Positions 1,062 through 31,707 of a stretch of DNA of 32,000 nt are shown here, one piece after another; positions within the stretch are counted from its first letter, which is position 1; each line of letters begins with the position of its first letter. This stretch comes from Candidatus Electronema aureum. Lineage in GTDB: Bacteria > Desulfobacterota > Desulfobulbia > Desulfobulbales > Desulfobulbaceae. The notes below the pieces were generated by a model. The model did no database searches, was not told where the DNA came from, and saw only the letters and a program-made list of their open reading frames with translations. Both the position numbers and the translations under genes were made by a program. The stretch lies in contig NQJD01000025.1 of the NCBI GenBank assembly GCA_004284765.1, positions 3,562-35,561 of the forward strand, read 5' to 3'.

Positions 1062-1067
1062 CGACCT

Positions 1068-1406
1068 TTATGCCGCAGCTTCGCTGTCGTGCTGACAGCA
1101 TTTTTCCTTGTTCAGCCCAGCCTCTAACTCAGCGACGCGACGGCGCAGCTCTTCGACCTCATCAGTGCTGGCAAGATGACACTGCTTGACTTTCTCATCC
1201 ACCTTACGCCCGATCCATTGCTCCAGATTTACTTTGGCTGCATCGGATTTCTTCAGTAGATCATCGACAAAGGCTTTGCCTTCCTCCACAGACAGACAGC
1301 CCTTGTCCATCATTTCCTTGCGTACTTCCTCAAGTTTCTCACGGGTGAGAAACGCTGCGCCGATTCCCGCATACATCACGTTTTTCAACAAATCTTTCAT
1401 GCTCAT
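1068..1406 (-). CDS. phasin-like small coiled-coil protein, of the type commonly found upstream of ubiB-like genes
   Basis: 112-aa ORF, charged and helical (AGIGAAFLTREKLEEVRKEM...). Its stop lies 6 nt upstream of the UbiB-like start. GGAGGG directly abuts the first ATG, so the true start may be the second ATG at 1400. Confidence 0.65.
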   Translation of the reverse strand: MSMKDLLKNVMYAGIGAAFLTREKLEEVRKEMMDKGCLSVEEGKAFVDDLLKKSDAAKVNLEQWIGRKVDEKVKQCHLASTDEVEELRRRVAELEAGLNKEKCCQHDSEAAA

Positions 1407-1506
1407 GCCCTCCTGAGTTAAAGTTGCATCGCCGCTCTTCTCGCAGCTCCACCTGAAAGGAACGTACTCGATTTTGTGTGGTCAACACAAGGGAATAAGG
1501 GAGGCG

Positions 1507-2568
1507 TCACACCTCGACCTCAGCAAAATACTCTCGCACCGCCTCAATGCCTTGCTCGGCAATTTCCATTGGTGGTGAGGAAAGCGGGTTGTTATCAAGC
1601 ATCAGCTCGGTCAGATTTGTCATCTGAGTGAGTTCTGGTGGCAACTCGCTGAAGCGGTTACTGTGCAGATTCAGCTCGGTCAGATCATGCAGCTCAAAAA
1701 GCGCAGGCGAGAGCGTGCTCAACTCATTGCCGTAAAGACAAAGCGAGGTGAGTTCATTGAGGCGGGCGATTTCTGGCGGTAGCTCGCTGAGATGGTTGCT
1801 GTGCAGATTTAATTCAGTCAAGCCAGTGAGCGAGAAAATCTCCGGCGGCAGCTCAGTTAAGTTATTGTTGCCAAGACAGAGCGCGGTCAGGCCGGTCAGT
1901 TGGGTGATTTCCGGCGGCAGGCTACGCAGCTTGTTGCCACCAAGATAGAGATGGGTTAGGCTGGCAAGCTGGCCGATAGCAGCAGGCAGCTCGTGCAGGT
2001 CATTGTCGAGCAGAGAAAGCTCGGTCAGATTGGTGAGTTGGCCGATTTCCGGCGGCAGTTCAGTCAGGCAGTTGCTGTCGATATCCAGCTCTCTGAGATG
2101 AGGCAACCGGAAGAGTTCCAAGGGCAGACTGCGCAGGCGATTGCCGTTGAGGTTCAACACAGTCAAGTTGGTGAGCTGGCCGATTTCTGGTGGCAGCTCA
2201 GTCAACTTGTTGCCGCTCAGGTTCAGCTCAGTCAGATGAGTGAGCTGGCCGATTTCTGGCGGCAACGTGCACAGACAATTATTGAGCAGATAAAGCTCGG
2301 TTAAGTCAGTGAGCTGCGAAATCTCGACGGGAAGCTGACTCAGGCCATTGCCACCAAGATTGAGTGCTTTCAACTGACTCAGCCGGGCAATGTCGGGCGG
2401 CAACGAAGTCAGTTTATTGCTGCGCAGGTTCAGCTCGGTGAGGTTCGTCAGCTCGAAGAGTTCTGGCGGCAGCTCACTGAGCTGACTGCCGATAAGGTTA
2501 AGACTGGCGGCTTTGCTCTCCGCCGCTTTTTTAATCTTCATCACTTTGACCAGTTCCTCATTCATCAT
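1507..2568 (-). CDS. stand-alone leucine-rich repeat (LRR) protein: 13 x 23-aa repeats plus a C-terminal cap, Roco-type LRR flavour
   Basis: Repeat unit LxxLxLxxNxLxxLPPEIGQLTNLTE occurs 13 times. The cap is NNPLSSPPMEIAEQGIEAVREYF. I moved the start to ATG 2568 because GGAGGA lies 6 nt upstream; the ORF track extends to 2652. Confidence 0.9.
   Translation of the reverse strand: MMNEELVKVMKIKKAAESKAASLNLIGSQLSELPPELFELTNLTELNLRSNKLTSLPPDIARLSQLKALNLGGNGLSQLPVEISQLTDLTELYLLNNCLCTLPPEIGQLTHLTELNLSGNKLTELPPEIGQLTNLTVLNLNGNRLRSLPLELFRLPHLRELDIDSNCLTELPPEIGQLTNLTELSLLDNDLHELPAAIGQLASLTHLYLGGNKLRSLPPEITQLTGLTALCLGNNNLTELPPEIFSLTGLTELNLHSNHLSELPPEIARLNELTSLCLYGNELSTLSPALFELHDLTELNLHSNRFSELPPELTQMTNLTELMLDNNPLSSPPMEIAEQGIEAVREYFAEVEV
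1606..2502 (-). repeat. 69-bp tandem coding repeats (the LRR units), some sharing near-identical ~26-nt cores
   Basis: gtgag(c/t)tggccgatttc(t/c)gg(t/c)ggca recurs at 2033, 2171 and 2240. The spacings are 138 and 69 nt. Confidence 0.85.
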
Positions 2569-2648
2569 CAGACATCCTCCGTGGGGAAAACTTGCCCCTG
2601 TTGTATTGTCCACCTTGTTGATAGACGCTGCCCTGTGGCTTGAAAAAA

Positions 2649-2803
2649 GCACTCTCGTGCTCGAAAAAAAACATCGAGTGATGTCGTTAGGAAACTATTC
2701 TCGATGTCGGACTAAGACCTCCCTCGATCTCAGAAAAAACATCGAGCGTGCTCGTACTACGACATCGAGAATGGTTTTCTAAAAAGTACCCTCGATGTTT
2801 TTC
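2649..2803. promoter_or_regulatory. cluster of an 8-bp motif, ACATCGAG / CTCGATGT, in both orientations within the rapZ-CTD to LRR intergenic region
   Basis: ACATCGAG at 2671, 2739 and 2762. CTCGATGT at 2700 and 2791. Variant CTCGATCT at 2723. The motif is flanked by A-runs or T-runs, and gtgctcg recurs next to it (2656, 2748). Hairpins could form, for example 2671 with 2700 and 2762 with 2791. Function unknown. Confidence 0.35.
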
Positions 2804-2828
2804 CGGGAGAAGCAGGGAGGCTGGGGGT

Positions 2829-3203
2829 TTACTCCCGGTGAATATCTCGGTGAGAAACAGCCAGCTCGTTGTTACTGGTCATCTCAGTCAGAACATGTCG
2901 CAGATGCTCTGTCACCGCCACAGAGCGATGTCGTCCGCCAGTGCAGCCAATAGCGCAGGTAAATTCTTGGCGGCCTGCCTGCTTGTGACTGTTGAGGATG
3001 AAGGCAAGAAAGGGGTTTAGCTGCGCCAAGAACTCGCGCCCAACCTCGCTTTTCAGCACATAAGCAGCCACCAGCTCTTCCACGCCAGTATGCTCCTTCA
3101 ATTCCGGCACCCAGTAGGGATTAGGCAGAAAGCGGACATCCAGCACCATATCCGCCTCTGGCTGACCGTATTTGAAGCCAAAGGAAAAGAGACTGATCTT
3201 CAT
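2829..3203 (-). CDS. RapZ (YhbJ) C-terminal domain only, as a stand-alone 124-aa protein
   Basis: [28 protein letters not shown] ... [14 protein letters not shown] aligns with my recollection of the E. coli RapZ C-terminal half ([28 protein letters not shown] ... AIGCTGGKHRSV). It has its own GGAG 6 nt before the ATG. The ClC stop codon lies 9 nt upstream, so no P-loop N-domain is encoded here. Confidence 0.85.
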   Translation of the reverse strand: [124 protein letters not shown]

Positions 3204-5140: not shown

Positions 5141-6511
5141 ATGAAGCTGCACAGAAGACTGAAAAAAATTCTCAATCCGATTTCGTTGCCGGTGCTATTC
5201 TTCATGGCGGCGATTTTTATCGGTGCCTTGTTGCTTCATGCCCCTTTTAGCGGTGGCAAGGGGCAGGTCTCTTTTCTCGATGCTCTTTTTACCTCCACCT
5301 CAGCGGTCTGCGTGACTGGTTTGGCCGTGGTTGACACGGGTACTGCCTACACGCGCACCGGCCATATCGTGATCATGCTGCTCATTCAGGGCGGCGGTCT
5401 TGGCATCATGTCTTTTTCTACCTTAGCCTTGTATTTGTGGAAAAAAAAGGTTTCCCTGACTGACCGAATTGCGGTCGGCCAGAGTATCCTCAATAACGCC
5501 AGCTTTCATCTGGGCAGCTTTTTGGTGCAAGTTATTGCAGTCACGTTGCTGATTGAGCTGGCTGGTGCGCTGCTCCTGTTCATCAGCGATCCACAGGGTT
5601 TTCCGCCCTTTTCTGCCTTGTTTCATGCGGTTTCTGCCTTTTGCAATGCAGGCTTCTCTCTTAGCCCAGACAATTTGATGCGCTGGAAGGGCAGCTGGCC
5701 AATCAACCTGACCATAATGTTTTTGATTGTCCTTGGCGGGCTGGGTTTTTCAGTAATTATCGAGAGTGCTTCCTTTTTTCCCGACCTTCTGCGCCGGAGA
5801 AAAAGACGGCATTTGCACGATGCTTGGCATGTGAATATTGTTCTTAAAACTTCTCTGTTTCTCATTGCCGCTGGTGCCTTGTATATTTATCTGTCGGAAT
5901 TTGTTTTCTTTAAGCCGTATCTCCCCGTAAACGAGGCCGTACTGACCTCACTTTTTCAATCTGTCACCTGTCGTACCGCAGGCTTTAACACCTTGAATAT
6001 TGCGGCGATGACCGATGCCTCGCTGCTCTTCATGATTTTGCTGATGTTTATCGGCGGAGCACCAGGCTCTTGTGCAGGCGGCATCAAAGTGACCACTTTC
6101 CGGGTTTTGCACGCCTTTATCACCGCCCAGCTCAAAGGCAGACATCAAATCGTGATCGGTAAATATGCAGTGGATCGAGAGTCGGTCAACAGCTCGCTGA
6201 CGCTGCTTTTCTTTTCAGTGGCGATAGTCTTTTTCAGCGTTATTGCTCTTAATTTCACCGACGGTGGTGGTGTCTCGCACGGGCAAACGCAGGGCAGATT
6301 TTTAGAAATTCTCTTTGAAGCCGTCTCGGCTTTTGGCACAGTCGGCTTGAGCGCGGATTTAACGCCTAAGCTCTCTTCAGGCGGTAAAATTATTATCATT
6401 TTTTTGATGTTCATCGGCAGGCTCGGCCCGTTGGTTTTGCTGAGTTCGGTGCAGTCCTTTGGCACAAAACTGTTGTTTTCTAGACCAGAAGAAAAAATTT
6501 CCATTGGCTGA
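5141..6511 (+). CDS. TrkH/KtrB-family K+ uptake membrane subunit
   Basis: 456-aa polytopic ORF with repeated pore-loop-type segments (SAVCVTGL, SAFCNAGFS, CRTAGFN, SAFGTVGLS). Followed 15 nt later by an RCK-domain gene. Confidence 0.9.
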   Translation: MKLHRRLKKILNPISLPVLFFMAAIFIGALLLHAPFSGGKGQVSFLDALFTSTSAVCVTGLAVVDTGTAYTRTGHIVIMLLIQGGGLGIMSFSTLALYLWKKKVSLTDRIAVGQSILNNASFHLGSFLVQVIAVTLLIELAGALLLFISDPQGFPPFSALFHAVSAFCNAGFSLSPDNLMRWKGSWPINLTIMFLIVLGGLGFSVIIESASFFPDLLRRRKRRHLHDAWHVNIVLKTSLFLIAAGALYIYLSEFVFFKPYLPVNEAVLTSLFQSVTCRTAGFNTLNIAAMTDASLLFMILLMFIGGAPGSCAGGIKVTTFRVLHAFITAQLKGRHQIVIGKYAVDRESVNSSLTLLFFSVAIVFFSVIALNFTDGGGVSHGQTQGRFLEILFEAVSAFGTVGLSADLTPKLSSGGKIIIIFLMFIGRLGPLVLLSSVQSFGTKLLFSRPEEKISIG

Positions 6512-6526
6512 GTAGGAAGCGGAGCA

Positions 6527-7177
6527 ATGAAACTACAAATCGGCATCGTTGGCTTAGGCAAATTTGGATTGAAATTCGGCCAAACTTTGGTTGCATTGGG
6601 ACATGAGGTTCTTGGTGTGGAGAGTGATCCAGAAAAGGTGAAAAATGCCCAGCACATTCTCACCCAAGTCTTCCAAACTGATGCGATGAGCCGCGAGGCA
6701 TTAGAGCAGATCAGAATTCAGGACTTGGAACATGTCTTAGTCAGCGTGGGCGATTCCATCGCGGCCAGCATCATGATCTCGATGTACCTAAAAGAGTTGG
6801 GTGTGGCTAAAGTCTGGGCCAAGGCAATCAACAAAGATCACGAGAAGCTGCTCTACAAGATCGGCGTGGATGAGGTGGTGATTCCTGAATTTATGGCGGC
6901 CAAGCAGATTGCCAGCCGGATTGCCATGCCTGGCTTTATCGAGTATCTCCCCTTTGATCGCTCAATGGCAGTGAAAGAGTTCACCATTAAACGCTGGGCT
7001 GGGAAAAATCTCAAGGAGCTAAACCTGACCAATATTTTTGGTATTCAGGTCATCGCTGCCCGTCGGAGTGGCGAGAAAAAATATCAGTACATCCCCAAGG
7101 CCGATGAGCTGTTTCAGGAAGGTGATAATTTTGTCGCTATTGGTAAAATCTCGCAGTTAAGCAAAATCTTACCCTGA
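6527..7177 (+). CDS. TrkA/KtrA-family K+ uptake regulatory subunit (RCK N and C domains)
   Basis: The N-terminal Rossmann motif IGIVGLGKFG, a length of 216 aa, and its position directly after the TrkH-like gene. Confidence 0.88.
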   Translation: MKLQIGIVGLGKFGLKFGQTLVALGHEVLGVESDPEKVKNAQHILTQVFQTDAMSREALEQIRIQDLEHVLVSVGDSIAASIMISMYLKELGVAKVWAKAINKDHEKLLYKIGVDEVVIPEFMAAKQIASRIAMPGFIEYLPFDRSMAVKEFTIKRWAGKNLKELNLTNIFGIQVIAARRSGEKKYQYIPKADELFQEGDNFVAIGKISQLSKILP

Positions 7178-7216
7178 TCGATAGGGCTGATTCTCATCGC
7201 CGCGCTGCATTGCTCA

Positions 7217-7225
7217 TGCTATAAT
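7217..7225 (+). promoter_or_regulatory. possible extended -10 promoter element (TGcTATAAT) upstream of corC-lnt
   Basis: tgctataat at 7217-7225 lies in the 100-nt gap after the trkA-like gene. I saw no convincing -35 element. Confidence 0.25.
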
Positions 7226-7278
7226 GCTCGGGGCGATAGGATGACATAATCTTTTTGGAGACATGCAGCACTGAAGAT

Positions 7279-8127
7279 ATGAGCGAAAAAGAGGGGGAAG
7301 GGCGAGAAAAATCATTTTGGCAGCGGCTCCAGCGGCATCTGTTTCGATCTTCACCAGATACTGCCCAAGAGCTTGAGCATGAAATACAGGAGTTGCTGGA
7401 AGACGGCGAAGAGCATGGTCTGATCAGCAGACATGAGGAGCAGCTGATCAACTCCATCTTTAATTTTCGTGCTACAGTAGCTTCGGAAATCATGACTCCG
7501 GCTTCGGAAATCATCTCCGCTGACCTTAACAGCTCGGTGGAGGAAATCATCCAGCTGATCTGCGAGGAAGGTTACACTCGTATTCCGGTTTTCAGCGGTG
7601 GCCACGACAACATCGTTGGTACGCTTCACGCGAAAGACCTGCTGAGAATTGCCAGTCAGCAAACGGATAAACCGATACAGATAGAAGATTGCCTTAACCC
7701 GCCGGTTTTAGTTGCTGAATCCAAGCCAATCACTGAGTTGCTGCGAGATTTTCAGTCTGGCAAAAACCACATGGCTATTGTCACGGATGAATTCGGCAGC
7801 GTGCGCGGCTTGATCACCTTAGAAGACGTACTGGAAGAAATTGTCGGTGAAATTGACGACGAGCATGATCAGCACGAACGGGAGCTGATGCTTGAGGTTG
7901 ATCTCCAGACCGTGGTTGCTGATGCCCGGATCGACGTTGAAGCGGTAGAAAAACATTTTGACTGTCTCCTGCCGGACGGTCCTTACGAATCCTTGGGCGG
8001 ACTGTTGATTCATCTGTTGGGGCGAATGCCGGGCAACGGTGAAACCGTGACCACGCCACCGCTGACCTTCAAAGTACTGACCTCAACCCCGCGCCGAGTC
8101 CGCACCGTGCGCATCCGCAAGCTATGA
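7279..8127 (+). CDS. corC: CorC/YbeX-type protein (CBS pair plus CorC_HlyC transporter-associated domain)
   Basis: ASEIMTPASEI ... IPVF ... IVGTLHAKDLL ... AIVTDEFGSVRGLITLEDVLEEIVGEIDDEHD, followed by a CorC-type C-terminal domain. There is a 4-bp overlap with lnt, matching the conserved ybeX-lnt synteny. The ATG at 7279 is preferred over the track TTG at 7255. Confidence 0.88.
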   Translation: MSEKEGEGREKSFWQRLQRHLFRSSPDTAQELEHEIQELLEDGEEHGLISRHEEQLINSIFNFRATVASEIMTPASEIISADLNSSVEEIIQLICEEGYTRIPVFSGGHDNIVGTLHAKDLLRIASQQTDKPIQIEDCLNPPVLVAESKPITELLRDFQSGKNHMAIVTDEFGSVRGLITLEDVLEEIVGEIDDEHDQHERELMLEVDLQTVVADARIDVEAVEKHFDCLLPDGPYESLGGLLIHLLGRMPGNGETVTTPPLTFKVLTSTPRRVRTVRIRKL

Positions 8128-9794
8128 CCTCCTCTAAAAGTACTTCGTTTTTTGCTCCTGCTGCTTCGGCTTTGTTGCTGGCCTTGGCTATGCCCGGTTT
8201 AGTCGGTTGCTGGCCCCTGCTTTTCATTGCCTTGGTACCGTTGCTCTGGGCAGCGCGGACGTTGCCGAGTACGGTGCAAAGCGGCTGCATGGGTATGTCT
8301 TCCGGCTTGCTTTATCATCTCAGCCTGCTCTACTGGATCGTTATTGTTTTAGAACACTACGGTGGTCTGCACGCCTCAGTGGCAATAATTGTCCTCGTTC
8401 TGCTGGCCGTGTATATGTCAGCCTACACTGCCTTTTTCTGCATGATTCTCAATCGACTGACCACGAGGCCAGAAAGCGGCAAAGGCTTATCTGTCTCTGT
8501 ACTCCTGATCGCGCCAGTAGTTTGGGTAGGGCTTGACGTAGCACGGGGCTGGCTTTTCTCCGGTATTCCGTGGATGGACCTCGGCTATGGCCTGCACCGT
8601 GAGCCGCTGTTGATCCAAACTGCGGATTTGGGCGGACATCACCTGATTACGTTCTTTATTGTCCAGATCAACACCCTAATTTATTGGTTTATAGATAGAA
8701 TTTTCAGCGCAGCGAAAGCACCAAAACGTCAGTATCTGCTCGCAGTTATGGTCTGTCTCAGTCTTTACTGCGCGGGTGGCTACTCAATGGTGCGCTATCG
8801 ACAGGTGGTTTCCGAAGCCGCCGCAGCCGAACAGATTACGGCTCTTGCTGTGCAAGGCAATGTTGACCAGAGCGAAAAATGGTCGCCAGCACTCAAGGTG
8901 GAGACTATTGACCGCTACCTTTCTTTGTCAGCAAAAGCCTTTCAAAGTGAGAACAAGATTAGCTTGGTCGTCTGGCCGGAAACCGCTCTGCCTTTTTATC
9001 CGCATCGGGAGCCGCTGATAAGCCGGGTGAAGGCGTTCGCCAAAGAAAAGCAAACGTATCTGCTTACCGGAGCACCGTATTTTACTATCACCCTCCAAGA
9101 GCAAAAAGCAGCGGCAGAACAGTTCAACGACACGCTCAGACCGGTGGAATATTTTAATAGTGCCCTGATGTACGACCGAACAGGCCAACTGAATGGCAGG
9201 TACAACAAGCAACATTTGGTGCCATTCGGCGAGTATGTTCCTTTGAGTGACTACCTTTGGTTCATCAGGCCATTAGTAGAGCTGGTGGGCGATTTTTCTC
9301 CTGGCAATTCTTTTGAACCACTCAATGCGGATACTATCAAAGCGGGCGTTTTGATTTGCTTTGAATCGATCTTTCCGAACATTGCTCGGCGCGAGACTGC
9401 CGCAGGAGCAAATCTCTTGGTCAGCATGACAAACGATGCGTGGTACGGCAAATCCAGCGCACCGCATCATTCTTGGGCCATGACCATAATGCGCGCGGTG
9501 GAAAATCGGCGCAGCATCGTTCGAGCCGCGAATACTGGTATCAGCGGCTTTATCGCACCAACCGGAGCGATAAGCAGCGAATCCGGCCTGTTCACTGCCG
9601 AGGCTCTGACCGATACGGTGGCCTTGATGACGGAAAAAACCGTGTTTGTCCAAGGTGGTTACTGGTTTGGCACCTTCTGTTTAACTCTGACCGGCCTCTT
9701 CCTGTGGAGTCATGCTTGGATGGAAAGAAGAAGACGGCGGGAACTCAAGCGAAAGCAGGAAGTTCTCCGCCAGCAGAGAGCTGCGGAGGCTTAG
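8124..9794 (+). CDS. lnt: apolipoprotein N-acyltransferase
   Basis: N-terminal multi-TM region followed by a nitrilase-fold domain. Triad contexts are VVWPETALP (Glu), NKQHLVPFGEYVP (Lys) and GVLICFESIF (Cys). ATGA overlap with corC. Confidence 0.92.
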   Translation: MTSSKSTSFFAPAASALLLALAMPGLVGCWPLLFIALVPLLWAARTLPSTVQSGCMGMSSGLLYHLSLLYWIVIVLEHYGGLHASVAIIVLVLLAVYMSAYTAFFCMILNRLTTRPESGKGLSVSVLLIAPVVWVGLDVARGWLFSGIPWMDLGYGLHREPLLIQTADLGGHHLITFFIVQINTLIYWFIDRIFSAAKAPKRQYLLAVMVCLSLYCAGGYSMVRYRQVVSEAAAAEQITALAVQGNVDQSEKWSPALKVETIDRYLSLSAKAFQSENKISLVVWPETALPFYPHREPLISRVKAFAKEKQTYLLTGAPYFTITLQEQKAAAEQFNDTLRPVEYFNSALMYDRTGQLNGRYNKQHLVPFGEYVPLSDYLWFIRPLVELVGDFSPGNSFEPLNADTIKAGVLICFESIFPNIARRETAAGANLLVSMTNDAWYGKSSAPHHSWAMTIMRAVENRRSIVRAANTGISGFIAPTGAISSESGLFTAEALTDTVALMTEKTVFVQGGYWFGTFCLTLTGLFLWSHAWMERRRRRELKRKQEVLRQQRAAEA

Positions 9795-9802
9795 AGGCAA
9801 CA

Positions 9803-10048
9803 GTGACCAAGCAAAAAAATTATATCGGAGTCAGCAAAACTGAGGACGACACGTGGCAGTTTGCCGTGCAAAGGGCTAACGGCAAAGTAAAAACTGTCAC
9901 CGGCTTCAGCACGGCCAAGGTGGCAGCCCTGCTCCGAGATGAGTATATCCTCCAACATCGGCTCGACGAGGCACGCAACTTTACTGTTAAACGAATAGCA
10001 AAGGTGCGAAATGAAGCCTATGAGCAGATGTTCGGCAGGCAGGACTGA
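9803..10048 (+). CDS. small hypothetical protein, tentatively an AP2-like DNA-binding fold
   Basis: The non-overlapping tail of track ORF 9440..10048. GTG at 9803 has GAGG 5 nt upstream. The pattern NYIGVSKTEDDTWQFAVQRANGKVKTVTGFSTAKVAALLRDEY resembles the AP2 consensus (YxGV..W.A.i...GK...lG.F.t.eeAA.ayD). Confidence 0.45.
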   Translation: MTKQKNYIGVSKTEDDTWQFAVQRANGKVKTVTGFSTAKVAALLRDEYILQHRLDEARNFTVKRIAKVRNEAYEQMFGRQD

Positions 10049-10075
10049 TTTTTATTTCATTGGAGGGAGAGAACA

Positions 10076-11189
10076 ATGGCAGATTTGACTGAAACTGCGG
10101 AACTGCGGCAGAAGATTCAGGCACTGAAAGGGAAAGTGCTGGCTCTGAAGGAGCATCTTTGACTTAGACAGCAAGAAGTTAGACATTGAGCGGTTAGAGT
10201 CTGAGTCGCTGGAGCCAAATTTCTGGAACGATCAGCATAAGGCCAAGAAAGTGCAACGGCAGCTCGGTCAGCTCCAAGATGTGGTTAAGGGCTGGGAGCT
10301 GCATTTTCAGCATATCGAAGAGGCGGAAATGCTCTTGGATATGGCTTTAGAGGAAAGTGACGTAGAGGCTCTGAGTGAGGTCGAAACCTCGCTTGATCGC
10401 CTTGCTCAGGAGGTGGAGCTGACCGAATTAGAATGCATGTTCGATGGCGAGCATGACAGCTGCAATGCCCTGCTCACTGTTCATGCGGGCGCGGGCGGAA
10501 CTGAGGCTCAAGACTGGGTGAGTATGCTGCTGCGCATGTATCTACGTTGGGCCGAACTGCACAGTTTTCCTGCCGATATTCTTGATTATCTGCCCGGCGA
10601 CGAGGCCGGAGTCAAATCCGTAACCATTCTGATCAAGGGCAAGAATGCCTACGGCTATACTCGCTCTGAGGTTGGCATTCACCGTTTGGTGCGAATTTCG
10701 CCTTTTGACGCTTCGGGTCGGCGACACACATCTTTTGCCTCAGTGATGGTGCTGCCGGAATTGGACGACACCATTGAGATTGACATCAACGAAAAAGAAC
10801 TGCGCATCGACACCTACCGCTCCAGCGGCGCAGGAGGCCAGCACGTCAACAAGACCGACTCGGCCATTCGCATCACCCATCTGCCAACGAATATCGTGGT
10901 GCAATGCCAGAACGAGCGTTCTCAGCTTCGTAACAAGGAAATGGCGATGAAAATGCTGATGTCCAAGCTCTACGACAAGCAGCAGAAGGAAAACTTGCAG
11001 GCGCAGGAAAATCTGCACGGTGAGAAAAAGGAAATCGCTTGGGGCAGCCAGATTCGCTCTTATGTACTCCAACCCTACCGGCTGATTAAGGACCACCGCA
11101 CCAACGTCGAGGTTGGCAACGTTGATGCGGTGTTAGACGGCAATCTGGATCAGTTCATCAAGGCTTTTCTCCTCTGGCAGCCGCGTTAG
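10076..11189 (+). CDS. prfB: peptide chain release factor 2, join(10076..10159,10161..11189), with programmed +1 frameshift
   Basis: Frame 0 reads MADLTETAELRQKIQALKGKVLALKEHL and then TGA at 10160. The +1 frame continues DLDSKKLDIERLE... into the track ORF (10251..11189). That ORF carries SPF (RISPFDASGRRHTSFASV) and GGQ (SGAGGQHVNKT). Confidence 0.95.
10148..10163 (+). promoter_or_regulatory. RF2 autoregulatory +1 frameshift site (internal SD-like AAGGAG, 3-nt spacer, CTT TGA C)
   Basis: aaggag cat ctt tga c. This has the same layout as the E. coli prfB site, AGGGGG TAT CTT TGA C. Confidence 0.9.
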
Positions 11190-11192
11190 CCA

Positions 11193-12383
11193 ATGCCTCT
11201 GCTCACCAGCCTGCTGATCCTAATCGTTGTCGCCCGGCTGCTGGGGCAAATCTTTCAGCGTTTCGGCCAGCCCTCCATTGTTGGAGAAATGCTGGCCGGA
11301 GTGCTGCTCGGCCCCAGCTTTCTTAACCTGATTCATCCCAACACCGCTCTTTCCAGCATCTCGGAATTTGCTGTCTTTCTGGTGGTGTTATCCGCTGGAC
11401 TGGAGATGAATTTCAAAGACATCCTCAACGCCTTGCTGGGCCGGGGCATTGTCATCGCCGTACTCGGCTTTATTCTACCTCTGACTGCGGGCATTGCAGT
11501 GGGCGCGGTCTTTCAGCTCGACCTGATGCGCACGGTCTTCCTTGGCCTTTGCGTGTCAATCACTGCTCTGCCGGTCACGGTGCGCATTCTCCAAAGTTTC
11601 AATCTGCTTGATTCCGATATTGCCCGTTATTCGGTGGCCACGGCCATTTTCAACGACGTGGTGGCTCTGTTAGTGCTGGGAGTGATTCTCAATTTACCTG
11701 CCCAGCTTTCCCTGTCAGCGGTGATTTTGTCGATTGTCAGCACCAGCTGGAAGCTCATCGCTCTCGGCGCATTCATCCTCGGCTTCAACTGGCAGTTAGA
11801 GCGGATGATCAAGCGGGGAATTCATATCGAAAAAATATCGGAGAAGTTAGTTGATGCCGTTGGTAATGAGGCTCTTTTCGGTATCTTAGTGCTGTTTGTG
11901 CTGGTCTTCGGCTCGGTCAGCGAAGCCTTGGGCTTTCACTTTGTCATCGGTGCATTTTTCGGCGCACTGTTGATTGACCGCAAATTCTTTCTTGCCTCGC
12001 GCTATCACGAATTAGACCTCACCCTGCGCTCAATCACCGAAGGCTTTCTGGGGCCAGTCTTTTTTGCCTACCTGGGGTTAGAATTCAACATTGATGCCTT
12101 GAAGCCACTGGGGTTTGTCTTGGTCGTGCTGGTCGTATCAATCAGCTCAAAAGTGCTGGCGGGTTGGCTCGGTGGCTTGGTTATTCAGCTCCCGCCTGCC
12201 CGTGCCTTGGGTATCGGTATTATTCTCAATGGCCGTGGAGTGATGGAATTAGTCATCGCCAGCATCGCTTACGAGCGCGGCTTTATCAATCAGGGCATGT
12301 TCTCCACATTAGTGCTGATGGGCGTAGTGACAACCATGATGACCCCGCTGATGTTCCGACGCTGGATACTGCCCCGACTATAA
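11193..12383 (+). CDS. CPA2-family monovalent cation:proton antiporter (Na+/H+ exchanger family)
   Basis: 396-aa polytopic ORF. The N-terminus ARLLGQIFQRFGQPSIVGEMLAGVLLGPS is typical of Kef/NapA-type CPA2 proteins. Starts 3 nt after the prfB stop. Confidence 0.85.
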   Translation: MPLLTSLLILIVVARLLGQIFQRFGQPSIVGEMLAGVLLGPSFLNLIHPNTALSSISEFAVFLVVLSAGLEMNFKDILNALLGRGIVIAVLGFILPLTAGIAVGAVFQLDLMRTVFLGLCVSITALPVTVRILQSFNLLDSDIARYSVATAIFNDVVALLVLGVILNLPAQLSLSAVILSIVSTSWKLIALGAFILGFNWQLERMIKRGIHIEKISEKLVDAVGNEALFGILVLFVLVFGSVSEALGFHFVIGAFFGALLIDRKFFLASRYHELDLTLRSITEGFLGPVFFAYLGLEFNIDALKPLGFVLVVLVVSISSKVLAGWLGGLVIQLPPARALGIGIILNGRGVMELVIASIAYERGFINQGMFSTLVLMGVVTTMMTPLMFRRWILPRL

Positions 12384-12395
12384 CCTGCTGAAACA

Positions 12396-12746
12396 ATGCA
12401 CCCTGTCCTTACTTCTATCCTCATGCTGACGTGCAGCAACGTCTTCATGACCTTTGCTTGGTACGCCCATCTCAAGGAATTGAGCAGCAAACCGTGGATA
12501 ATCGCTGCGTTGGCGAGCTGGGGCATTGCCTTATTTGAATATCTGCTTCAGGTTCCAGCCAACCGGATTGGCTTTACGGTTTTGAGCGTGGGTCAGCTCA
12601 AGATCATTCAAGAAGTAATCACCTTGACGGTATTCCTCCCTTTTTCCGTGATGTATCTGAAAGAACCTCTGAAGCTCGATTATCTTTGGGCAGGCTTATG
12701 TTTGGTGGGCGCGGTCTATTTTATGTTCAGAAGCAAGATAGGGTAA
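12396..12746 (+). CDS. DMT-superfamily small membrane protein (DUF486 family)
   Basis: 116 aa with four hydrophobic segments. NVFMTFAWYAHLK ... LQVPANRIG ... QLKIIQEVITL is characteristic of DUF486. Confidence 0.8.
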   Translation: MHPVLTSILMLTCSNVFMTFAWYAHLKELSSKPWIIAALASWGIALFEYLLQVPANRIGFTVLSVGQLKIIQEVITLTVFLPFSVMYLKEPLKLDYLWAGLCLVGAVYFMFRSKIG

Positions 12747-12764
12747 AAAATGAAGGAAGAAAGC

Positions 12765-13127
12765 ATGGTAAAATTACGGATAACTCTCCACGATAGTGAG
12801 GCTGATGACGAGCAGCTTGACCGACTGGCTCTGTCGCTGATACGGCAGCTTCGGGATTTGGAGGCGATTGAATCTTTGGAGAGGGAGGCAGGAAAAGCGA
12901 TAGACAGGAGCAAAGGCGACCCGATCACGGTGGGCGGCGTGATTCTTGGCATTGCAGTGGCGGCCATTCCGAATCTGATCAGCTTGCTTCAACAGTGGAC
13001 AGTCGGCAACCGCACCATTAAAGTTGAAGCTCCGAACGGAGCGAAGGCGGAATTCACCCCAGATCACCGGTATTCCAAAGAGGAAATTGCCGAATTGGTG
13101 CGGTCGCTCAATCGAGTCAAGCAATAA
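12765..13127 (+). CDS. small protein resembling the effector-associated constant component EACC1; partner of the downstream caspase-STAND gene
   Basis: VKLRITLHDSEADDEQLDRLALSLIRQLRDLE, then KGDPITVGGVILGIAVAAIPNLISLLQQW (a central hydrophobic helix), then TIKVEAPNGAKAEF..SKEEIAELVRSL. This matches my recollection of the EACC1 pattern. AAGGAAG lies 5 nt before ATG 12765 (the track start is 12750). The stop is 12 nt before the next gene. Confidence 0.55.
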   Translation: MVKLRITLHDSEADDEQLDRLALSLIRQLRDLEAIESLEREAGKAIDRSKGDPITVGGVILGIAVAAIPNLISLLQQWTVGNRTIKVEAPNGAKAEFTPDHRYSKEEIAELVRSLNRVKQ

Positions 13128-13139
13128 CTGGAAGATGCG

Positions 13140-16100
13140 ATGGAACGCCGTTCAGCCCTGCTGATCAGCAGCAGCGAGTATCAGGATGCCAGCCTCACCC
13201 GACTTTTTGCGCCGCAAAATGACGTGCAGGCTTTGGCAGAAGTGCTGCGTGATGCCTGCATCGGCGGCTTTGAGGTGAAGGAACTACTGATCAACAAAGC
13301 CTCCTCGGTAATTCGAGAGGCTATTGCCGACTTTTTCGCCGAACAGAGGCGCGACGATCTTGCTCTGCTCTATTTCAGCGGTCACGGCCTGAAAGATGAT
13401 TTGAACAGCGGTAAGCTCTATCTGACAGCCACGGATACCAGACGCGACCGGCTCCGGGCAACCGGCATCGCGGCCAGCTTTCTCTTGGAAGAGGTGGAAG
13501 AATCGAAATCCCGCCGCATCATCCTGATTCTCGATTGCTGCTTCAGCGGTGCCTTTGCGCGTGGGAGTAAGGGCGCGGATGAGGAACTTGATGCGGCTTT
13601 TAAGAACATGGGCTATGGGCGGGTTGTCCTCACCGCCAGCAATGCCGTTCAGCTCGCTTATGAAGACGAACAGGCCAAAGACGGAGCGGTTCATTCGATC
13701 TTCACAAAATTTCTGCTGGAAGGACTCCGCACCGGGGCTGCTGATTTGTCCCAGCGCGGAGAGATCAGCGTGAATGATCTTTACCAGTATGTGAACAAGC
13801 AGATCAAACAGATGGACAGTGGCAGGCGGCAGACTCCGAAAATCTGGGATTTTGATCGTGAAGGGGAGGAGCTGGTTATTGCCAAAAATCCCTTTGCGCC
13901 GCCTCCCACGCCTGTCGCTGTCCAGTCGGGAAAACGTCCGCTCACCTACACACTCCGTCCGCAGGCGCATAACTTTGTTGACCGAGTTAAGCAACGCAAG
14001 GAATTGCGGAGCGATCTTCTTGATGCAACCAAGGTCTTCGTGATTGTGGACGGCTTGGCCGGAATAGGCAAAACTATGCTGGCGGCAAAAGTGGCCGAGG
14101 AATCTGAAGCTGATTTTGCGGGCATCTATTACAGCAAATGCGCAAAAGAAACAGATGTAGATCAGCTCCTCGCAGAGCTGGCGTATTTTTTGAGCGGCTG
14201 CGGCGACCATTGTTTGAGTGGCGTGGTGGAGTATGACATTCCAGCAGCAAATAAAATTAATTTTCTGCTGGCTGCGCTGGGTGTGCGAAAATATCTGCTG
14301 ATTTTCGACGACGTGCATGAGCTGCTTAATTCGGAGCGGCAAATTAGCAATGAGGGAATTAAGCTGCTCTTCAGCGAACTGCTCAACACTCGCCATCAAG
14401 CAAAAGTTCTCCTTGTCAGTCGGGTGCGGCCCGTGCTGCCTTGGCAGCAACTTTGTCAGGTGCCGAGCAGTTTGGAGTCATTTGATGAAGAAAACGGCTT
14501 AGAATTGCTGCGGCTGCTGGGATTAGATGAGGACGAAGAACTGCTCCGCCGAGCTTGGCAGCTCACGGGCGGCCATCCTTTGGCGATGGGTCTGCTGGCG
14601 GGCATGGCCGGAACAATGGATTTGCAGCTCATTTTGGCTGAAACCAGTCTGTTTTATGGTGGAAGTTTGGTCAACGAACTGCTCCGGCGGCAGTTCTACA
14701 CCTTGCTCACTGTTGAGGAAAAGAATTTGCTGCTCAGAATGTCTGTCCTGCCGCGCCCGGCGGAATTCGGCATTATCGCCCATCTGGAAGAACAGGGGCA
14801 GGCGGCCCGCCTGCTGCCTGCGCTGGTGGAAAAAAATTTGGTGATGTACAGCAGAAAGGAGAAGAAATATCGTCTGCACGATTTGGTGCGGGAGTTCAGT
14901 CGGGCTGAGACGACGGCTGAGGAGCAGCAGCTTTGTCATTCGCGGCTGGCGGATTATTACGAGCGACTGGAATTCAATGCGGATAAGCCGAGCTTTGAGC
15001 AGGTGCAGCAGAGGCTTGAAGCCCAGCATCATGCCGTTCAGTCTGGTGAGAAGGCCAGAGCAGCACGGCTGCTGGTGGAAACTGCCGAGCATCTACGGAA
15101 ATGGGGCTATTTGGAGCGGTGCGGAAAGCTGCTGGCCGAGACCTTGGCCGCGCTGGAGAAGCTGGAGCCGACCAAGGAGCATCTGCTGCTGCGGGTCGAT
15201 CTGCTGGTGGAGCAGGGCTGGCTGGAACGTTCATCCTCCGGGTTAGACAAGGCGGTGGAGCGGTGCCGAGAGGCGGAGCGCATTCTGCAAACGGCGCAGG
15301 ATGAAGGGCGGGAAGGCAAGGTCTGTCATGCCTTGGGCAAGTTTTTCTACGAAGAGGCGTTGTGGGAGGAGGCAGAACAGTATTTTGTCCGTGCGTTTGA
15401 GTTGCAGAAGGCGCGGCGGAACACAAAGGAACTCGCCACAGTTGTTTGCAATTTATATGACTTATACTGGCGTGTTGAAGAAATAGAAAAAATAGAAAAA
15501 ACAAGCAAGGAAGGAATTAGAATCTGTGAGGAAGAAAACGATGCTGAAAACAAGGGGAAAATACTGATTGAAGTGCTTGGTAAAACTTTTGGAATACAGC
15601 GGAGATGGGAACACGCATTGGCGGTGTATAAAGAAAGTCTGCGATCAAGGCGAGATGATGATCTTCTTGGTCAAGCTTTGTCTTTACGGAAGATTGGCGA
15701 GGTGCTCCGGCAACAGAAGCAGTTTGAGGAGTCTCTGGAAAAGCATAAGGAAGGTTTTGCGTTAGCTCAAAAGGCTGGTGATATTTCGGCTCAAGCTATG
15801 GCATTGTTGGGTTGCGGCTATACATACAGAGATAATGGTGATATAAACAAAGCCATTGAGCTTTATGGTCAATGTTTTGATGTTGCTAATAAAATAGAGG
15901 GGATATCTGGCAGAGCTGATCTGTTTTATGATCTTGGAGAAGCTTATCGGGATGTCGGTAACTTGGAAAAAGCCTTACAACAGTTTAACGAAGCTCTGCG
16001 GTTAAGAAAAGAATCGGGAGATATTCTTGGGGCAGCAGATGTATTCAACAGATTAGGTTCATTTTATTCGACAAAATATTCAAATCTCTCCACCGCATTA

Positions 16101-16796
16101 AAATATTACAAGGATGCACTTGAAATCAAGAAGAGCTTAGGCAGATCGTTAGGAGTAGAAACGGAAACAAACAATATCGCTTTTGTTTATAAACATCAAG
16201 GAAGGTTCGACGAGGCTCTCGCTCTGTTTAAAAAGTTGATTTGGATCAGAATGAATAGGAGCTATGATATTGCGATCACTTATAACCATATAGGCCATAT
16301 ATATTACTTGAAAGGAAATATTAAAAAATCCTTTCTTTATTTCAAAAAAAGCCTGAGAATATACAAAAAAAATAATAGAGTCGGCGGAATATCAGTTACT
16401 CTTTCGTATCTTGGCGAGGCGTATCTTGCTCTTGGAAATTATGAAAAGGCTCTTGCAACTCTGCACGAGAGTGTGAATCTGAAAACCGTGATGTCCTCTA
16501 AAGCTATCCCGTTAACTTCCATCGCCAAGGTCTATTATCGCCAAAGAAACCTTGCTGCGGCAAAAAAGAAATGCGAGGAAAGCCTTGCCATCAGCAGGCA
16601 GTACGGCGGCAAAATCCAAGCGGGCGTAACCTTGCACCTTTTAGGGAAAATTCTGCTGGCGCAAGGCCATGCCGAGGAAGCGCGGGCGCATGTTCAGGAA
16701 GCAGTGGAGATTTTCCGGGCCGCTGGCAGCTTTCATCTCGCCGAAGCGGAAAAGACGCTGGCGGAAATAAATGAATTCCGCAGCAATATTGCTTAA
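13140..16796 (+). CDS. caspase-like (peptidase C14) - NB-ARC STAND NTPase - TPR repeat protein, 1218 aa
   Basis: Caspase dyad contexts are LLYFSGHG (His82, nt 13383-13385) and LILDCCFSGAF (Cys134, nt 13539-13541). Walker A is GLAGIGKT (aa 305-312, nt 14052-14075). Walker B is LLIFDDVHEL (D390/D391). VLLVSRVRP and LTGGHPLAMGLL correspond to the NB-ARC RNBS-B and GLPL-type motifs. From about aa 620 to the C-terminus there are TPR-like repeats (for example AxxLxxxGxxYxxxGxxxKAxxxYxxAL). Confidence 0.9.
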   Translation: MERRSALLISSSEYQDASLTRLFAPQNDVQALAEVLRDACIGGFEVKELLINKASSVIREAIADFFAEQRRDDLALLYFSGHGLKDDLNSGKLYLTATDTRRDRLRATGIAASFLLEEVEESKSRRIILILDCCFSGAFARGSKGADEELDAAFKNMGYGRVVLTASNAVQLAYEDEQAKDGAVHSIFTKFLLEGLRTGAADLSQRGEISVNDLYQYVNKQIKQMDSGRRQTPKIWDFDREGEELVIAKNPFAPPPTPVAVQSGKRPLTYTLRPQAHNFVDRVKQRKELRSDLLDATKVFVIVDGLAGIGKTMLAAKVAEESEADFAGIYYSKCAKETDVDQLLAELAYFLSGCGDHCLSGVVEYDIPAANKINFLLAALGVRKYLLIFDDVHELLNSERQISNEGIKLLFSELLNTRHQAKVLLVSRVRPVLPWQQLCQVPSSLESFDEENGLELLRLLGLDEDEELLRRAWQLTGGHPLAMGLLAGMAGTMDLQLILAETSLFYGGSLVNELLRRQFYTLLTVEEKNLLLRMSVLPRPAEFGIIAHLEEQGQAARLLPALVEKNLVMYSRKEKKYRLHDLVREFSRAETTAEEQQLCHSRLADYYERLEFNADKPSFEQVQQRLEAQHHAVQSGEKARAARLLVETAEHLRKWGYLERCGKLLAETLAALEKLEPTKEHLLLRVDLLVEQGWLERSSSGLDKAVERCREAERILQTAQDEGREGKVCHALGKFFYEEALWEEAEQYFVRAFELQKARRNTKELATVVCNLYDLYWRVEEIEKIEKTSKEGIRICEEENDAENKGKILIEVLGKTFGIQRRWEHALAVYKESLRSRRDDDLLGQALSLRKIGEVLRQQKQFEESLEKHKEGFALAQKAGDISAQAMALLGCGYTYRDNGDINKAIELYGQCFDVANKIEGISGRADLFYDLGEAYRDVGNLEKALQQFNEALRLRKESGDILGAADVFNRLGSFYSTKYSNLSTALKYYKDALEIKKSLGRSLGVETETNNIAFVYKHQGRFDEALALFKKLIWIRMNRSYDIAITYNHIGHIYYLKGNIKKSFLYFKKSLRIYKKNNRVGGISVTLSYLGEAYLALGNYEKALATLHESVNLKTVMSSKAIPLTSIAKVYYRQRNLAAAKKKCEESLAISRQYGGKIQAGVTLHLLGKILLAQGHAEEARAHVQEAVEIFRAAGSFHLAEAEKTLAEINEFRSNIA

Positions 16797-16870
16797 AATT
16801 GCATGAACCGTTTGATAATTCTTTTCGTTTCTGCAAAATCAGCATCGAATTTTACTCGGCCATAAAGGCG

Positions 16871-17059
16871 TGTTGCCAAGCAACAGAAAGTTGCAGCTTC
16901 GCAGGAGACATGTTTTGCCGAGTAAGAATGCTTTGGTACTCGGCAAAAGACTTTTGCGGATTAGCAAAAGAAGATTCTTACCAAGCAACAAAAAGTTTTG
17001 GCCGAGCCAGAACTCTTCGTTGTCGAGCCACAAAAGGTTCTTGCCTCGTTTGAAGGAAA
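16871..17059. repeat. nine degenerate 21-bp tandem repeats (approximate consensus t.ttgccgagcaa.aaaag.t)
   Basis: Units start at 16871, 16892, 16913, 16934, 16955, 16976, 16997, 17018 and 17039. Units 1 and 6 match at 17 of 21 positions. The periodicity produces three overlapping stop-free track ORFs (16799..17053 +, 16870..17064 +, 16839..17132 -) with heptad-like peptides such as LGQNFLL LGKNLLL. Confidence 0.75.
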
Positions 17060-17070
17060 AATAAACCCTC

Positions 17071-17124
17071 ATGCACCCTGTCCTTACTTCTATCAGCCTC
17101 ATGTTCAGAGGCAAGATAGGGTAA
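17071..17124 (+). pseudogene. internally deleted second copy of the DUF486/DMT gene (17 codons: MHPVLTSISLMFRGKIG*)
   Basis: 17071-17094 is identical to 12396-12419 (atgcaccctgtccttacttctatc). 17101-17124 (atgttcagaggcaagatagggtaa) matches 12723-12746 with one mismatch. The junction lies at a shared ctcATG / ttATG microhomology. Confidence 0.8.
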
Positions 17125-17148
17125 CGGCGCACCGTGACCCTGATTTTC

Positions 17149-27666: not shown

Positions 27667-27689
27667 CCCTCTGACTCTATTTCAGAGGG
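27667..27689. terminator. hairpin shared by convergent genes (CCCTCTGA-7nt-TCAGAGGG); possible bidirectional terminator
   Basis: Perfect 8-bp stem 18 nt after the rhodanese stop. It overlaps the last codons of the minus-strand gene. There is no clear U-tract. Confidence 0.35.
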
Positions 27690-29783: not shown

Positions 29784-30098
29784 CTAAAACCGAACAATAT
29801 CCGGTGACAGCATCTGGCCAAGATGCTGAAGGGTCGGCACGAGAAAGCTCTGAAGAAAGATGAGGGCAAAAATCAGAATCATCGGACTCAGATCAAGCCC
29901 ACCCATCGGCGGTAAATAACGTCTGATTTTATACAGAACTGGATCAGTCACCTGTACGAGAAAGCGGACGATGGGGTTGTAAGGATCAGCATTGACCCAA
30001 GAGATGACAGCCCTTGCGATCACAATCCAAATATAGGCGTTGGAAGCGATATAGATCAGCTTGGCAAGGGCAATAAGGAAATTTCCGAGAATGAACAT
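29784..30098 (-). CDS. YggT-family membrane protein
   Basis: 104 aa. The pattern IARAVISWVNADPYNPIVRFLVQVTDPVLYKIRRYLP...GLDLSPMI is typical of YggT. Confidence 0.85.
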   Translation of the reverse strand: MFILGNFLIALAKLIYIASNAYIWIVIARAVISWVNADPYNPIVRFLVQVTDPVLYKIRRYLPPMGGLDLSPMILIFALIFLQSFLVPTLQHLGQMLSPDIVRF

Positions 30099-30194
30099 GA
30101 TGCTTTTTTATAGTTGAAGAAGTTTTTTATTACGAACGAATCAATTCATTGTAGAAAACAGCGGAAATCAATCTTCCGATAAGATAAACTGCTT

Positions 30195-31469: not shown

Positions 31470-31707
31470 GATTTACTCCTTTTGGATTAATCTCAGTCAG
31501 AATTTTGTATTTTAATACGCAGATGATTACTGATTCAAGTAGTTGCTGATTTTCCCTGAAATGGGGAATTACACAGACGAACTGGACTCATTATGATTTA
31601 CCAAATTTCACTCAGCTCAATTTTAAATTGAATATCCAACAACTGATTAAAATCATATACTTATTTACAATTTATGTTTCTCGGTCTGTGAAAATTATAT
31701 ACAATGG

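Follow-up and report, generated by a model that had tools for sequence, protein, structure and literature searches.

This report concerns two adjacent genes in a stretch of 32,000 nt from the cable bacterium Candidatus Electronema aureum (contig NQJD01000025.1, positions 3,562 to 35,561 of the forward strand), which is called the window in the following and to whose first letter all coordinates refer. The first gene codes for a small protein of the EACC1 family. The second codes for a large protein in which a caspase-like protease is fused to an NB-ARC-type STAND NTPase and to a long array of tetratricopeptide repeats (TPRs). Together the two genes probably constitute a cell-suicide cassette. 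They are arranged as follows:

12750-13127, plus strand: EACC1 gene, 125 aa, its product the predicted substrate of the protease and latent pore former
13140-16796, plus strand: caspase-NB-ARC-TPR gene, 1218 aa (from the reading frame, Pfam and NCBIfam)

The initial annotation of this DNA had described two open reading frames (ORFs) of this kind, and their lengths, their common strand and the intergenic gap of 12 nt are as it stated. The record CAK8716757.1 of Ca. Electronema aureum matches the large protein with 100% identity; in the public annotation it is called only a 'Tetratricopeptide repeat-containing protein', while its 125-aa partner is listed as hypothetical. In comparison with two orthologues the ratio of nonsynonymous to synonymous substitution rates (dN/dS) is 0.09-0.31 in all segments of both genes. 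Both are under purifying selection and are therefore real genes and not chance ORFs. As searches with Pfam, NCBIfam and PADLOC detected no further effector domain in the cassette, the EACC1 protein is its sole candidate toxin. A promoter and terminator scan gave no signal beyond shuffled expectation, and thus no dedicated or strong promoter for the cassette. The first ATG of the EACC1 gene (12750) lies 3 nt past the stop codon of the preceding gene and has no obvious ribosome-binding site; a second ATG at 12765 (Met6), preceded by the Shine-Dalgarno-like string GAAGGAAG, is a possible alternative start.

The N-terminal module of the large protein is the protease:

13140-13904, plus strand: caspase-like C14 domain of the EACC1-associated type, aa 1-255 (NF047832, Pfam and Foldseek)
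13383-13385, plus strand: codon of His82, catalytic dyad
13539-13541, plus strand: codon of Cys134, catalytic dyad

This domain matches the NCBIfam model NF047832 ('caspase, EACC1-associated type') with 178 bits, well above the cutoff of 140, and covers profile positions 2-209 of 211. Pfam assigns residues 3-235 to Peptidase_C14 (E 2.4e-18). An AlphaFold2 model of residues 1-640 has a mean confidence (pLDDT) of 81.4, and in a Foldseek search its first 255 residues match the paracaspase MALT1 (E 3.7e-12; target TM-score up to 0.76). The dyad residues are embedded in the motifs YFSGHG (His82) and LDCCFSG (Cys134), and both are invariant in the alignment of the clade. All motifs quoted in the initial annotation sit at the residues given there, and its division of the protein into a C14 caspase, an NB-ARC domain and TPRs is backed by Pfam. 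Furthermore, it had named failure of profile or structure searches as a way to disprove the C14 and NB-ARC folds; both types of searches were run and support both folds.

Two further invariant residues of the clade, D28 and D132, lie opposite MALT1 D365 and D462, as judged by alignment and residue counting. In MALT1 these residues are part of the S1 pocket which binds the P1 arginine, with E500 as the third S1 residue, and the comparison thus covers two of the three. An acidic S1 pocket, which goes with a basic P1 residue, is typical of para- and metacaspases, while true caspases have a basic one and cut after aspartate. Next to the catalytic cysteine the window protein has Phe135 in place of a near-invariant histidine of the clade, where the orthologue of Ca. 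Electronema nielsenii F5 has tyrosine and a more distant orthologue (locus L001) has histidine. The exchange was considered as an inactivating change and rejected, as the experimentally active protease KrAvs12 of Ktedonobacter racemifer, which is introduced below, carries the same Phe (LDCCFS) and the F5 orthologue a tyrosine. Among phage records none encodes a member of this caspase clade, and it is present on a few plasmids of Nonomuraea, Streptomyces and Nostoc.

The remaining part of the large protein, to which we refer as the chassis, consists of a nucleotide-binding switch and a repeat array:

13932-13964, plus strand: junction motif KRPLTYTLRPQ, aa 265-275, start of the chassis family and swap point of the N-terminal modules
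13965-14999, plus strand: NB-ARC STAND NTPase and winged-helix region, aa 276-620 (Pfam, motifs and Foldseek)
14052-14075, plus strand: Walker A motif GLAGIGKT, aa 305-312, with Lys311
14295-14315, plus strand: Walker B motif LLIFDDV, aa 386-392, with Asp390 and Asp391
15000-15434, plus strand: proximal helical/TPR block, aa 621-765, native composition (GC content at third codon positions, GC3, 0.65-0.73)
15435-16796, plus strand: distal TPR block, exchanged by recombination, aa 766-1218, presumed to sense the ligand

Pfam recognises the NB-ARC domain in residues 292-490 (E 1e-10, 41.8 bits versus 23.5). Beside the Walker motifs, VLLVSR (423-428), the GxP motif GGHPLA (477-482) and the MHD-like RLHDLV (578-583) are all intact. 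In Foldseek the region matches plant NRC proteins (NRC3), the archaeal STAND-TPR protein 6mfv, Apaf-1 and CED-4 with E-values between 1e-9 and 1e-11. About 600 aa of TPRs follow, which are matched by many TPR families of Pfam (TPR_12, E 1.8e-50).

The nearest relatives of residues 265-1218 show about 50% identity, but none of them carries a caspase: their N-termini are EAD8, EAD9, CHAT or unassigned. They align with the window protein from a sharp KRPxTYxxRPQ junction through the NB-ARC domain and the TPRs to the C-terminal helices. In one case a gene for an EAD8-trypsin protein is located few kilobases away, which is the adaptor-coupling arrangement of Kaur et al. 2020 (eLife e52696). While such EAD- or CHAT-coupled STAND proteins recruit or carry other effectors via adaptor domains, the window protein has an EACC1-type caspase fused directly. 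In the window protein, therefore, a caspase of the EACC1 type is joined to an NB-ARC-TPR chassis of the EAD/CHAT type. Of the 80 genome loci that scored best for the caspase, that of Ca. Electronema nielsenii F5 is the only one to share this chassis. Two metagenome scans for the chassis found nothing close, one of them giving no match at all and the other three matches with 23-28% identity.

A word-index search with the small ORF returned three relatives. The profile built from these found 551 clusters at E <= 0.001 among 1.84 billion representatives, nearly all of which are 110-140 aa long. The Pfam EACC1 model (PF19953) matches 36 of 78 aligned relatives, with a best E-value of 2.2e-10, and no other family matches any of the 78. 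In addition, hhalign aligns the family of the small ORF with the experimentally studied EACC1 protein of K. racemifer (KrEACC1) with a probability of 74% and an E-value of 2.8e-5 at 14% identity. Because homology is transitive through this profile family, the small ORF is a true, if divergent, EACC1, and the label EACC1-like which the initial annotation had attached to it is borne out.

Two elements of the small protein are of particular importance:

12903-12923, plus strand: disordered linker loop DRSKGDP, codons 52-58, with the K55-G-D57 motif, predicted cleavage region
12924-12989, plus strand: Gly/Ala-rich hydrophobic segment ITVGGVILGIAVAAIPNLISLL, codons 59-80 (from the sequence, family conservation and the structural model)

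AlphaFold2 predicts a small alpha+beta sandwich of ferredoxin-like type (pLDDT 82.7, predicted TM-score 0.75). Strand 6-15, helix 20-35 and strand 40-46 form an N-terminal beta-alpha-beta unit (residues 6-46), which is followed by the disordered loop 52-58, strand 61-69, helix 70-82, strands 88-93 and 99-103 and helix 110-124. This agrees with the layout sketched in the initial annotation. A Foldseek search of the model against the PDB gave no match at E <= 0.001 and only generic ferredoxin-like neighbours. The central hydrophobic segment with its patch of small residues (ITVGGVILGIAVAAIP) is buried in the uncleaved model as a strand and a helix (61-82; pLDDT 87-92). In the family alignment G62 hardly varies, and small residues predominate at positions 63 and 67; such a patch was described as a hallmark of EACC1 (eLife e52696). 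Loop 52-58, which connects the N-terminal cap with the hydrophobic core, is the sole segment of the protein with a pLDDT below 50, and at the same time carries the most conserved motif of the family: position 55 is Lys or Arg in 76 of 78 relatives, position 57 Asp or Glu in 70 of 78. In a homologue from Electrothrix the loop reads K-G-N, so that the lysine is kept and the acidic residue is lost.

Whether the small ORF is linked to caspase genes in other genomes was checked in a scan for the caspase clade, in which one genome per species was used, the best 80 loci were kept and their ORFs were searched with a hidden Markov model of the EACC1 alignment. An EACC1-like ORF is located directly upstream and on the same strand in 54 of the 85 clade caspase ORFs with enough upstream sequence (named genomes), with gaps of mostly no more than 12 nt. 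Of the caspases without an upstream EACC1, several belong to sets of tandem paralogues or result from the way in which the start codon was chosen. The conserved linkage which the initial annotation had made a touchstone of its proposal is thus present. The closest EACC1 relatives are paired with caspases of three different C-termini, namely NB-ARC-TPR (L001, where an orthologous caspase-NB-ARC-TPR gene lies downstream of EACC1), HEAT (L004) and a region without family assignment (L089). The latter locus belongs to the marine cable bacterium Ca. Electrothrix sp. LOE2 (609-3199), where an EACC1 gene, 46% identical in its product, is directly upstream of a gene for a caspase protein of 733 aa, in which Pfam recognises no family over the C-terminal 470 residues. 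In an Anaerolineales metagenome-assembled genome (L036, 6605-8521) a single ORF matches first the EACC1 profile and then, from residue 133 on, the caspase profile; this could be a natural EACC1-caspase fusion, but also the result of a lost stop codon or of an assembly error.

This kind of system has been predicted before. The 'System 4' of Kaur et al. 2020 (eLife e52696) combines a constant EACC1 with an N-terminal caspase which is fused to about 50 alternative C-terminal regions, explicitly including STAND NTPases and superstructure-forming repeats, so that the connection to this study drawn in the initial annotation is correct. System 4 was reported to be prevalent in actinobacteria and sporadic in proteobacteria, while the pair described here is found in cable bacteria of the Desulfobulbaceae. 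The mechanistic model of Kaur et al., with EACC1 as the sensor, differs from the one which is currently favoured.

The latter goes back to Evans et al. (10.1101/2025.11.14.688446, bioRxiv November 2025), who reconstituted an EACC1-caspase-Avs12 system from K. racemifer; the remark in the initial annotation that such systems have not been characterised experimentally is therefore outdated. Co-expression of the Ktedonobacter pair with a phage tail connector protein is toxic, and toxicity requires EACC1 as well as the catalytic cysteine. The KrAvs12 protease cuts EACC1 into an N- and a C-terminal fragment, of which only the C-terminal one is toxic, and only cleaved EACC1 permeabilises liposomes, which identifies it as a latent pore-forming toxin. 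The protease itself thus does not kill the cell but licenses EACC1. The authors also noted fusions of EACC1-caspases to DnaK-like chaperones, which suggest stress inputs.

For comparison, Table S1 of Evans et al. provided the sequence of KrEACC1 and, out of the 1146 residues of KrAvs12 (accession WP_040441935.1), residues 1-399. In both systems a small EACC1 gene is directly upstream of a gene for a fusion of caspase, STAND and repeat sensor. The proteases share the His/Cys dyad and the active-site string ILILDCCFS, and since active KrAvs12 reads this way Phe135 of the window protein is compatible with activity. In both EACC1 proteins a linker connects an N-terminal cap to a C-terminal half which is hydrophobic (5.7 and 7.2 kDa in Ktedonobacter, about 6.4 and 7.5 kDa predicted here), and our model agrees with Evans et al. 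in that the N-terminal fragment completes a sheet with strands of the C-terminal part. The STAND modules, however, are different: as judged on the first 399 of 1146 KrAvs12 residues, that of the window is an NB-ARC of another family than Avs12. The pair described here is closer to the centre of the EACC1-caspase family than the tested pair, but located on a different STAND.

The cleavage site is another point of difference. Evans et al. propose an aspartate at P1 (putative Asp49) (10.1101/2025.11.14.688446), and the masses which we computed for a cut at Asp49 equal the published fragment masses. In our profile alignment, however, Asp49 is opposite Thr60 of the window protein, and the residues opposite K55-G-D57 are R42-S-D44. 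The best solved relative of the protease, MALT1, cuts after arginine; D28 and D132 align with its S1 aspartates, and Lys55 is conserved throughout the EACC1 family. For these reasons a cut after Lys55 seems to us more probable than one after an aspartate.

Taken together, we consider it probable that the locus is a two-gene EACC1-caspase suicide cassette with the protease fused to an NB-ARC-TPR STAND, in which a ligand of the TPRs leads to oligomerisation, cleavage, pores and finally death. The domains, their fold, the linkage of the two genes and the selective constraint are established for this locus; by homology to the system of Evans et al. 2025, cleavage, pore formation and trigger can be pictured as follows. 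The C-terminal TPR array would bind the trigger, most likely a phage protein, and thereby release the ADP-locked NB-ARC domain, which would then oligomerise as known from STAND biology. Oligomerisation would gather the N-terminal caspase-like domains and activate them by proximity, as has been shown for a distant relative. The protease would cut EACC1 in the exposed loop 52-58 into the N-terminal beta-alpha-beta cap (~6.4 kDa) and the hydrophobic C-terminal fragment (~7.5 kDa). The freed C-terminal fragment would oligomerise and form membrane pores, and the cell would die. In a filamentous, clonal cable bacterium this death would shield the neighbouring cells. A phage protein as the trigger is a less secure part of this reading than the suicide machinery itself. 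In a survey of 589 STAND clades the TPR sensors bind structural and replicative phage proteins (10.64898/2026.01.04.697583).

The initial annotation had left open whether the small protein is a membrane-associated partner, a substrate or a regulator. Of these proposals that of a substrate stands, while a regulator or mere membrane partner is not supported, as the homologue is a pore-forming toxin (Evans et al.); most likely the small protein is the death effector. Its apoptosome-like logic in cis is reasonable and supported, but the idea is already in the literature, where bacterial Apaf-1-like STANDs with a caspase in place of the CARD were noted (10.64898/2026.01.04.697583). With the Apaf-1/caspase-9 apoptosome the cassette shares the NB-ARC fold (Foldseek E ~1e-9 to Apaf-1 and CED-4) and, as proposed here, the activation of a caspase-family protease by proximity upon oligomerisation of the NTPase. 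It differs from it in having a TPR sensor instead of a WD40 propeller, in lacking a CARD, and in its downstream target, a dedicated peptide with predicted pore-forming function; also, the protease fold and the putative S1 residues are nearer to MALT1 paracaspase than to caspase-9. Another parallel, drawn by Evans et al., are the bacterial gasdermin-protease systems, in which a protease strips an autoinhibitory segment from a pore former encoded next to it. EACC1, however, has no gasdermin fold but is modelled as a small ferredoxin-like domain, and its inhibitory part is N-terminal.

Several observations weigh against the suicide cassette or its anti-phage role. On its own the small ORF reaches only 15.4 bits (E 0.018) with PF19953, which is below the gathering score of 23.6. 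The caspase deviates from its family at near-invariant positions by a deletion of four residues in a loop and by the exchanges D168N and W174Y; the deletion follows the catalytic cysteine, where EELD replaces the conserved SVGT of the family, and all three changes are common to the window, F5 and L001 proteins. Moreover, the relationship to the tested system is no more than distant, with about 14% identity between the EACC1 proteins and 25% between the caspases, of which that from Ktedonobacter scores 83 bits on NF047832 and remains below the cutoff of 140 which the window protein passes. When compared by BLASTP with residues 1-399 of KrAvs12, the window protein can be aligned in the caspase region alone and shows no similarity in the STAND part, and the Avs models of PADLOC give no match at E < 0.1. 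Finally, the cassette is surrounded by housekeeping genes and not by a defence island, so that its context does not imply an anti-phage role.

The history of the locus can be followed in some detail. The cassette is flanked by:

12396-12746, plus strand: DMT_6/DUF486 gene (Pfam DMT_6, E 5e-47), its stop codon 3 nt ahead of the EACC1 gene, left edge of the insertion
17071-17124, plus strand: internally deleted DMT_6 mini-copy of 54 nt with the direct repeats D2 and D3, right-hand scar

The mini-copy consists of the first 24 nt of the DMT_6 gene (12396-12419; D2, 100%) and its last 24 nt (12723-12746; D3, 96%), joined near a shared ATG. As the DMT_6 gene and the mini-copy flank the cassette, the inserted segment 12747-17070 is bracketed by repeats of the gene ends. 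This suggests that the cassette integrated through recombination inside DMT_6 and that the second copy then lost its middle part. The large gene is separated from the scar by a spacer of 274 nt (16797-17070), which contains three copies of the 20-nt motif TTGCCAAGCAACAGAAAGTT (at 16873, 16978 and 17020; 75-100% identity). Tandem-repeat, Rfam and Pfam searches of 16797-17148 gave no meaningful match. In L001 the cassette adjoins argS, and homology to the window begins at the start codon of EACC1; given these different neighbours and this boundary, the two genes move as a unit.

From 6168 to 15641 the window is collinear with the genome of Ca. Electronema nielsenii F5 at 94.5% nucleotide identity, and the cassette is kept at the same locus there. 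Past residue ~765, however, the F5 protein diverges sharply. At about nt 15450 (~aa 766) GC3 falls from 0.65-0.73 to 0.29-0.48 in the distal block, and over the same stretch the more distant orthologue of L001 gains in nucleotide identity, from 0.70-0.78 to 0.85-0.94. The synonymous divergence (dS) is equally discordant: to L001 it is 0.37 in the distal block versus 0.64-1.29 elsewhere, to F5 2.46 in the distal block versus 0.09-0.16 elsewhere (proximal block 0.14). Because of the drop in GC3 and of these discordances in identity and dS, the distal TPR block, presumably the ligand-binding part, must have been exchanged by recombination. Its composition indicates a donor with lower GC content; no donor copy was found elsewhere in the window.

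The alternative which accounts best for the same data retains the machinery but gives it another task, namely the programmed death of filament cells in development or under stress, e.g. of ghost or sacrificial cells for breakage and dispersal, with the TPRs sensing an endogenous or stress signal. We regard this as unlikely, but it has several points in its favour. The host is a cable bacterium, and for cable bacteria ghost cells with emptied cytoplasm are documented and the function of their caspase-domain genes is stated to be unknown (PMC12163305). EACC1 systems are strongly enriched in multicellular bacteria, to which 650 of 671 organisms belong (Kaur et al., eLife e52696), and the DnaK-like chaperone fusions mentioned above would fit a stress input. 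The housekeeping neighbourhood, together with a possible co-transcription with DMT_6 (3-nt gap, no strong promoter found), points in the same direction. Against this, exchange of the distal TPRs between lineages and a patchy occurrence independent of genetic context are hallmarks of an arms race and not of developmental regulators, and the TPR-type STAND sensors tested to date all bind phage proteins (10.64898/2026.01.04.697583).

A more specific scenario, which we find rather unlikely, would make the cassette the executioner of ghost cells in cable bacteria. A single infected or damaged cell of the filament would trigger the STAND, EACC1 would be cut by the paracaspase-like domain after Lys55 and not after an aspartate, the residue proposed for Ktedonobacter, and pores would empty the cytoplasm while the periplasmic conductive fibres stay intact; the swapped distal TPR block would be a fast-evolving specificity module. 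If true, the filament would keep working, with its conductive fibres intact, after the loss of a single cell.

In the original model of Kaur et al. EACC1 is a membrane-embedded sensor which activates the caspase, and autoprocessing of the caspase frees the C-terminal region as effector. The proposal was based on the conserved Gly-rich transmembrane-like segment (eLife e52696), and at the present locus the hydrophobic segment 59-80 is indeed long enough to span a membrane. However, AlphaFold2 packs it with confidence (pLDDT 87-92) inside a soluble alpha+beta fold, the C-terminal region is a STAND-TPR receptor chassis without a toxic domain, and in the experiments with the homologue EACC1 is the cleaved toxin (Evans et al.), which makes this model improbable here. 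A decaying, non-functional cassette carried along as a passenger after insertion would fit the insertion scar, the unexplained 274-nt spacer, the caspase substitutions at several near-invariant positions and the dedicated promoter which the scan did not detect, but is highly improbable in view of the intact ORFs with all catalytic and nucleotide-binding motifs, the dN/dS of 0.09-0.31 versus two orthologues and the conservation of the cassette at the same locus in F5 (94.5% nucleotide identity).

Since the prediction of this kind of system dates from 2020 and the experimental proof for a relative from 2025, the locus is a new example and not a new kind. What makes it worth attention is the host, the sharpness of the module boundaries, the exchange of the sensor block and the prediction of a lysine at P1, which can be tested. 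For annotation, a protein so far known only for its TPRs and a hypothetical protein can now be named as components of an EACC1/caspase-STAND suicide cassette. With a more canonical EACC1-caspase pair than the tested one, another STAND chassis and a sharp junction, the locus would be a clean natural case of the shuffling of effector, switch and sensor. With Lys55 conserved family-wide and the S1 aspartates resembling those of MALT1, the cleavage site assigned in the published system can be put to a specific and inexpensive test. For the biology of cable bacteria, the cassette is a specific candidate mechanism for regulated death of single cells within the filament, an open question in the literature.

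Apart from the cassette, the window contains a few features of note. A second block of low GC content (0.36-0.39 versus ~0.53) extends from 30000 to 32000, includes a DUF2130 gene (30195-31469, minus strand) and may be another acquired segment. A 573-aa ORF at 27677-29398 (minus strand) has no Pfam match at E <= 1e-5. On the same strand, 1507-2652 codes for a protein of 381 aa which consists almost wholly of leucine-rich repeats (LRR_8, E 2e-56). The prfB gene for release factor 2 (10077-11189) is ordinary; after its ATG at 10077 follows, at 10157, the classic programmed +1 frameshift site CTTTGAC, because of which the listed ORF starts only at the GTG at 10251.

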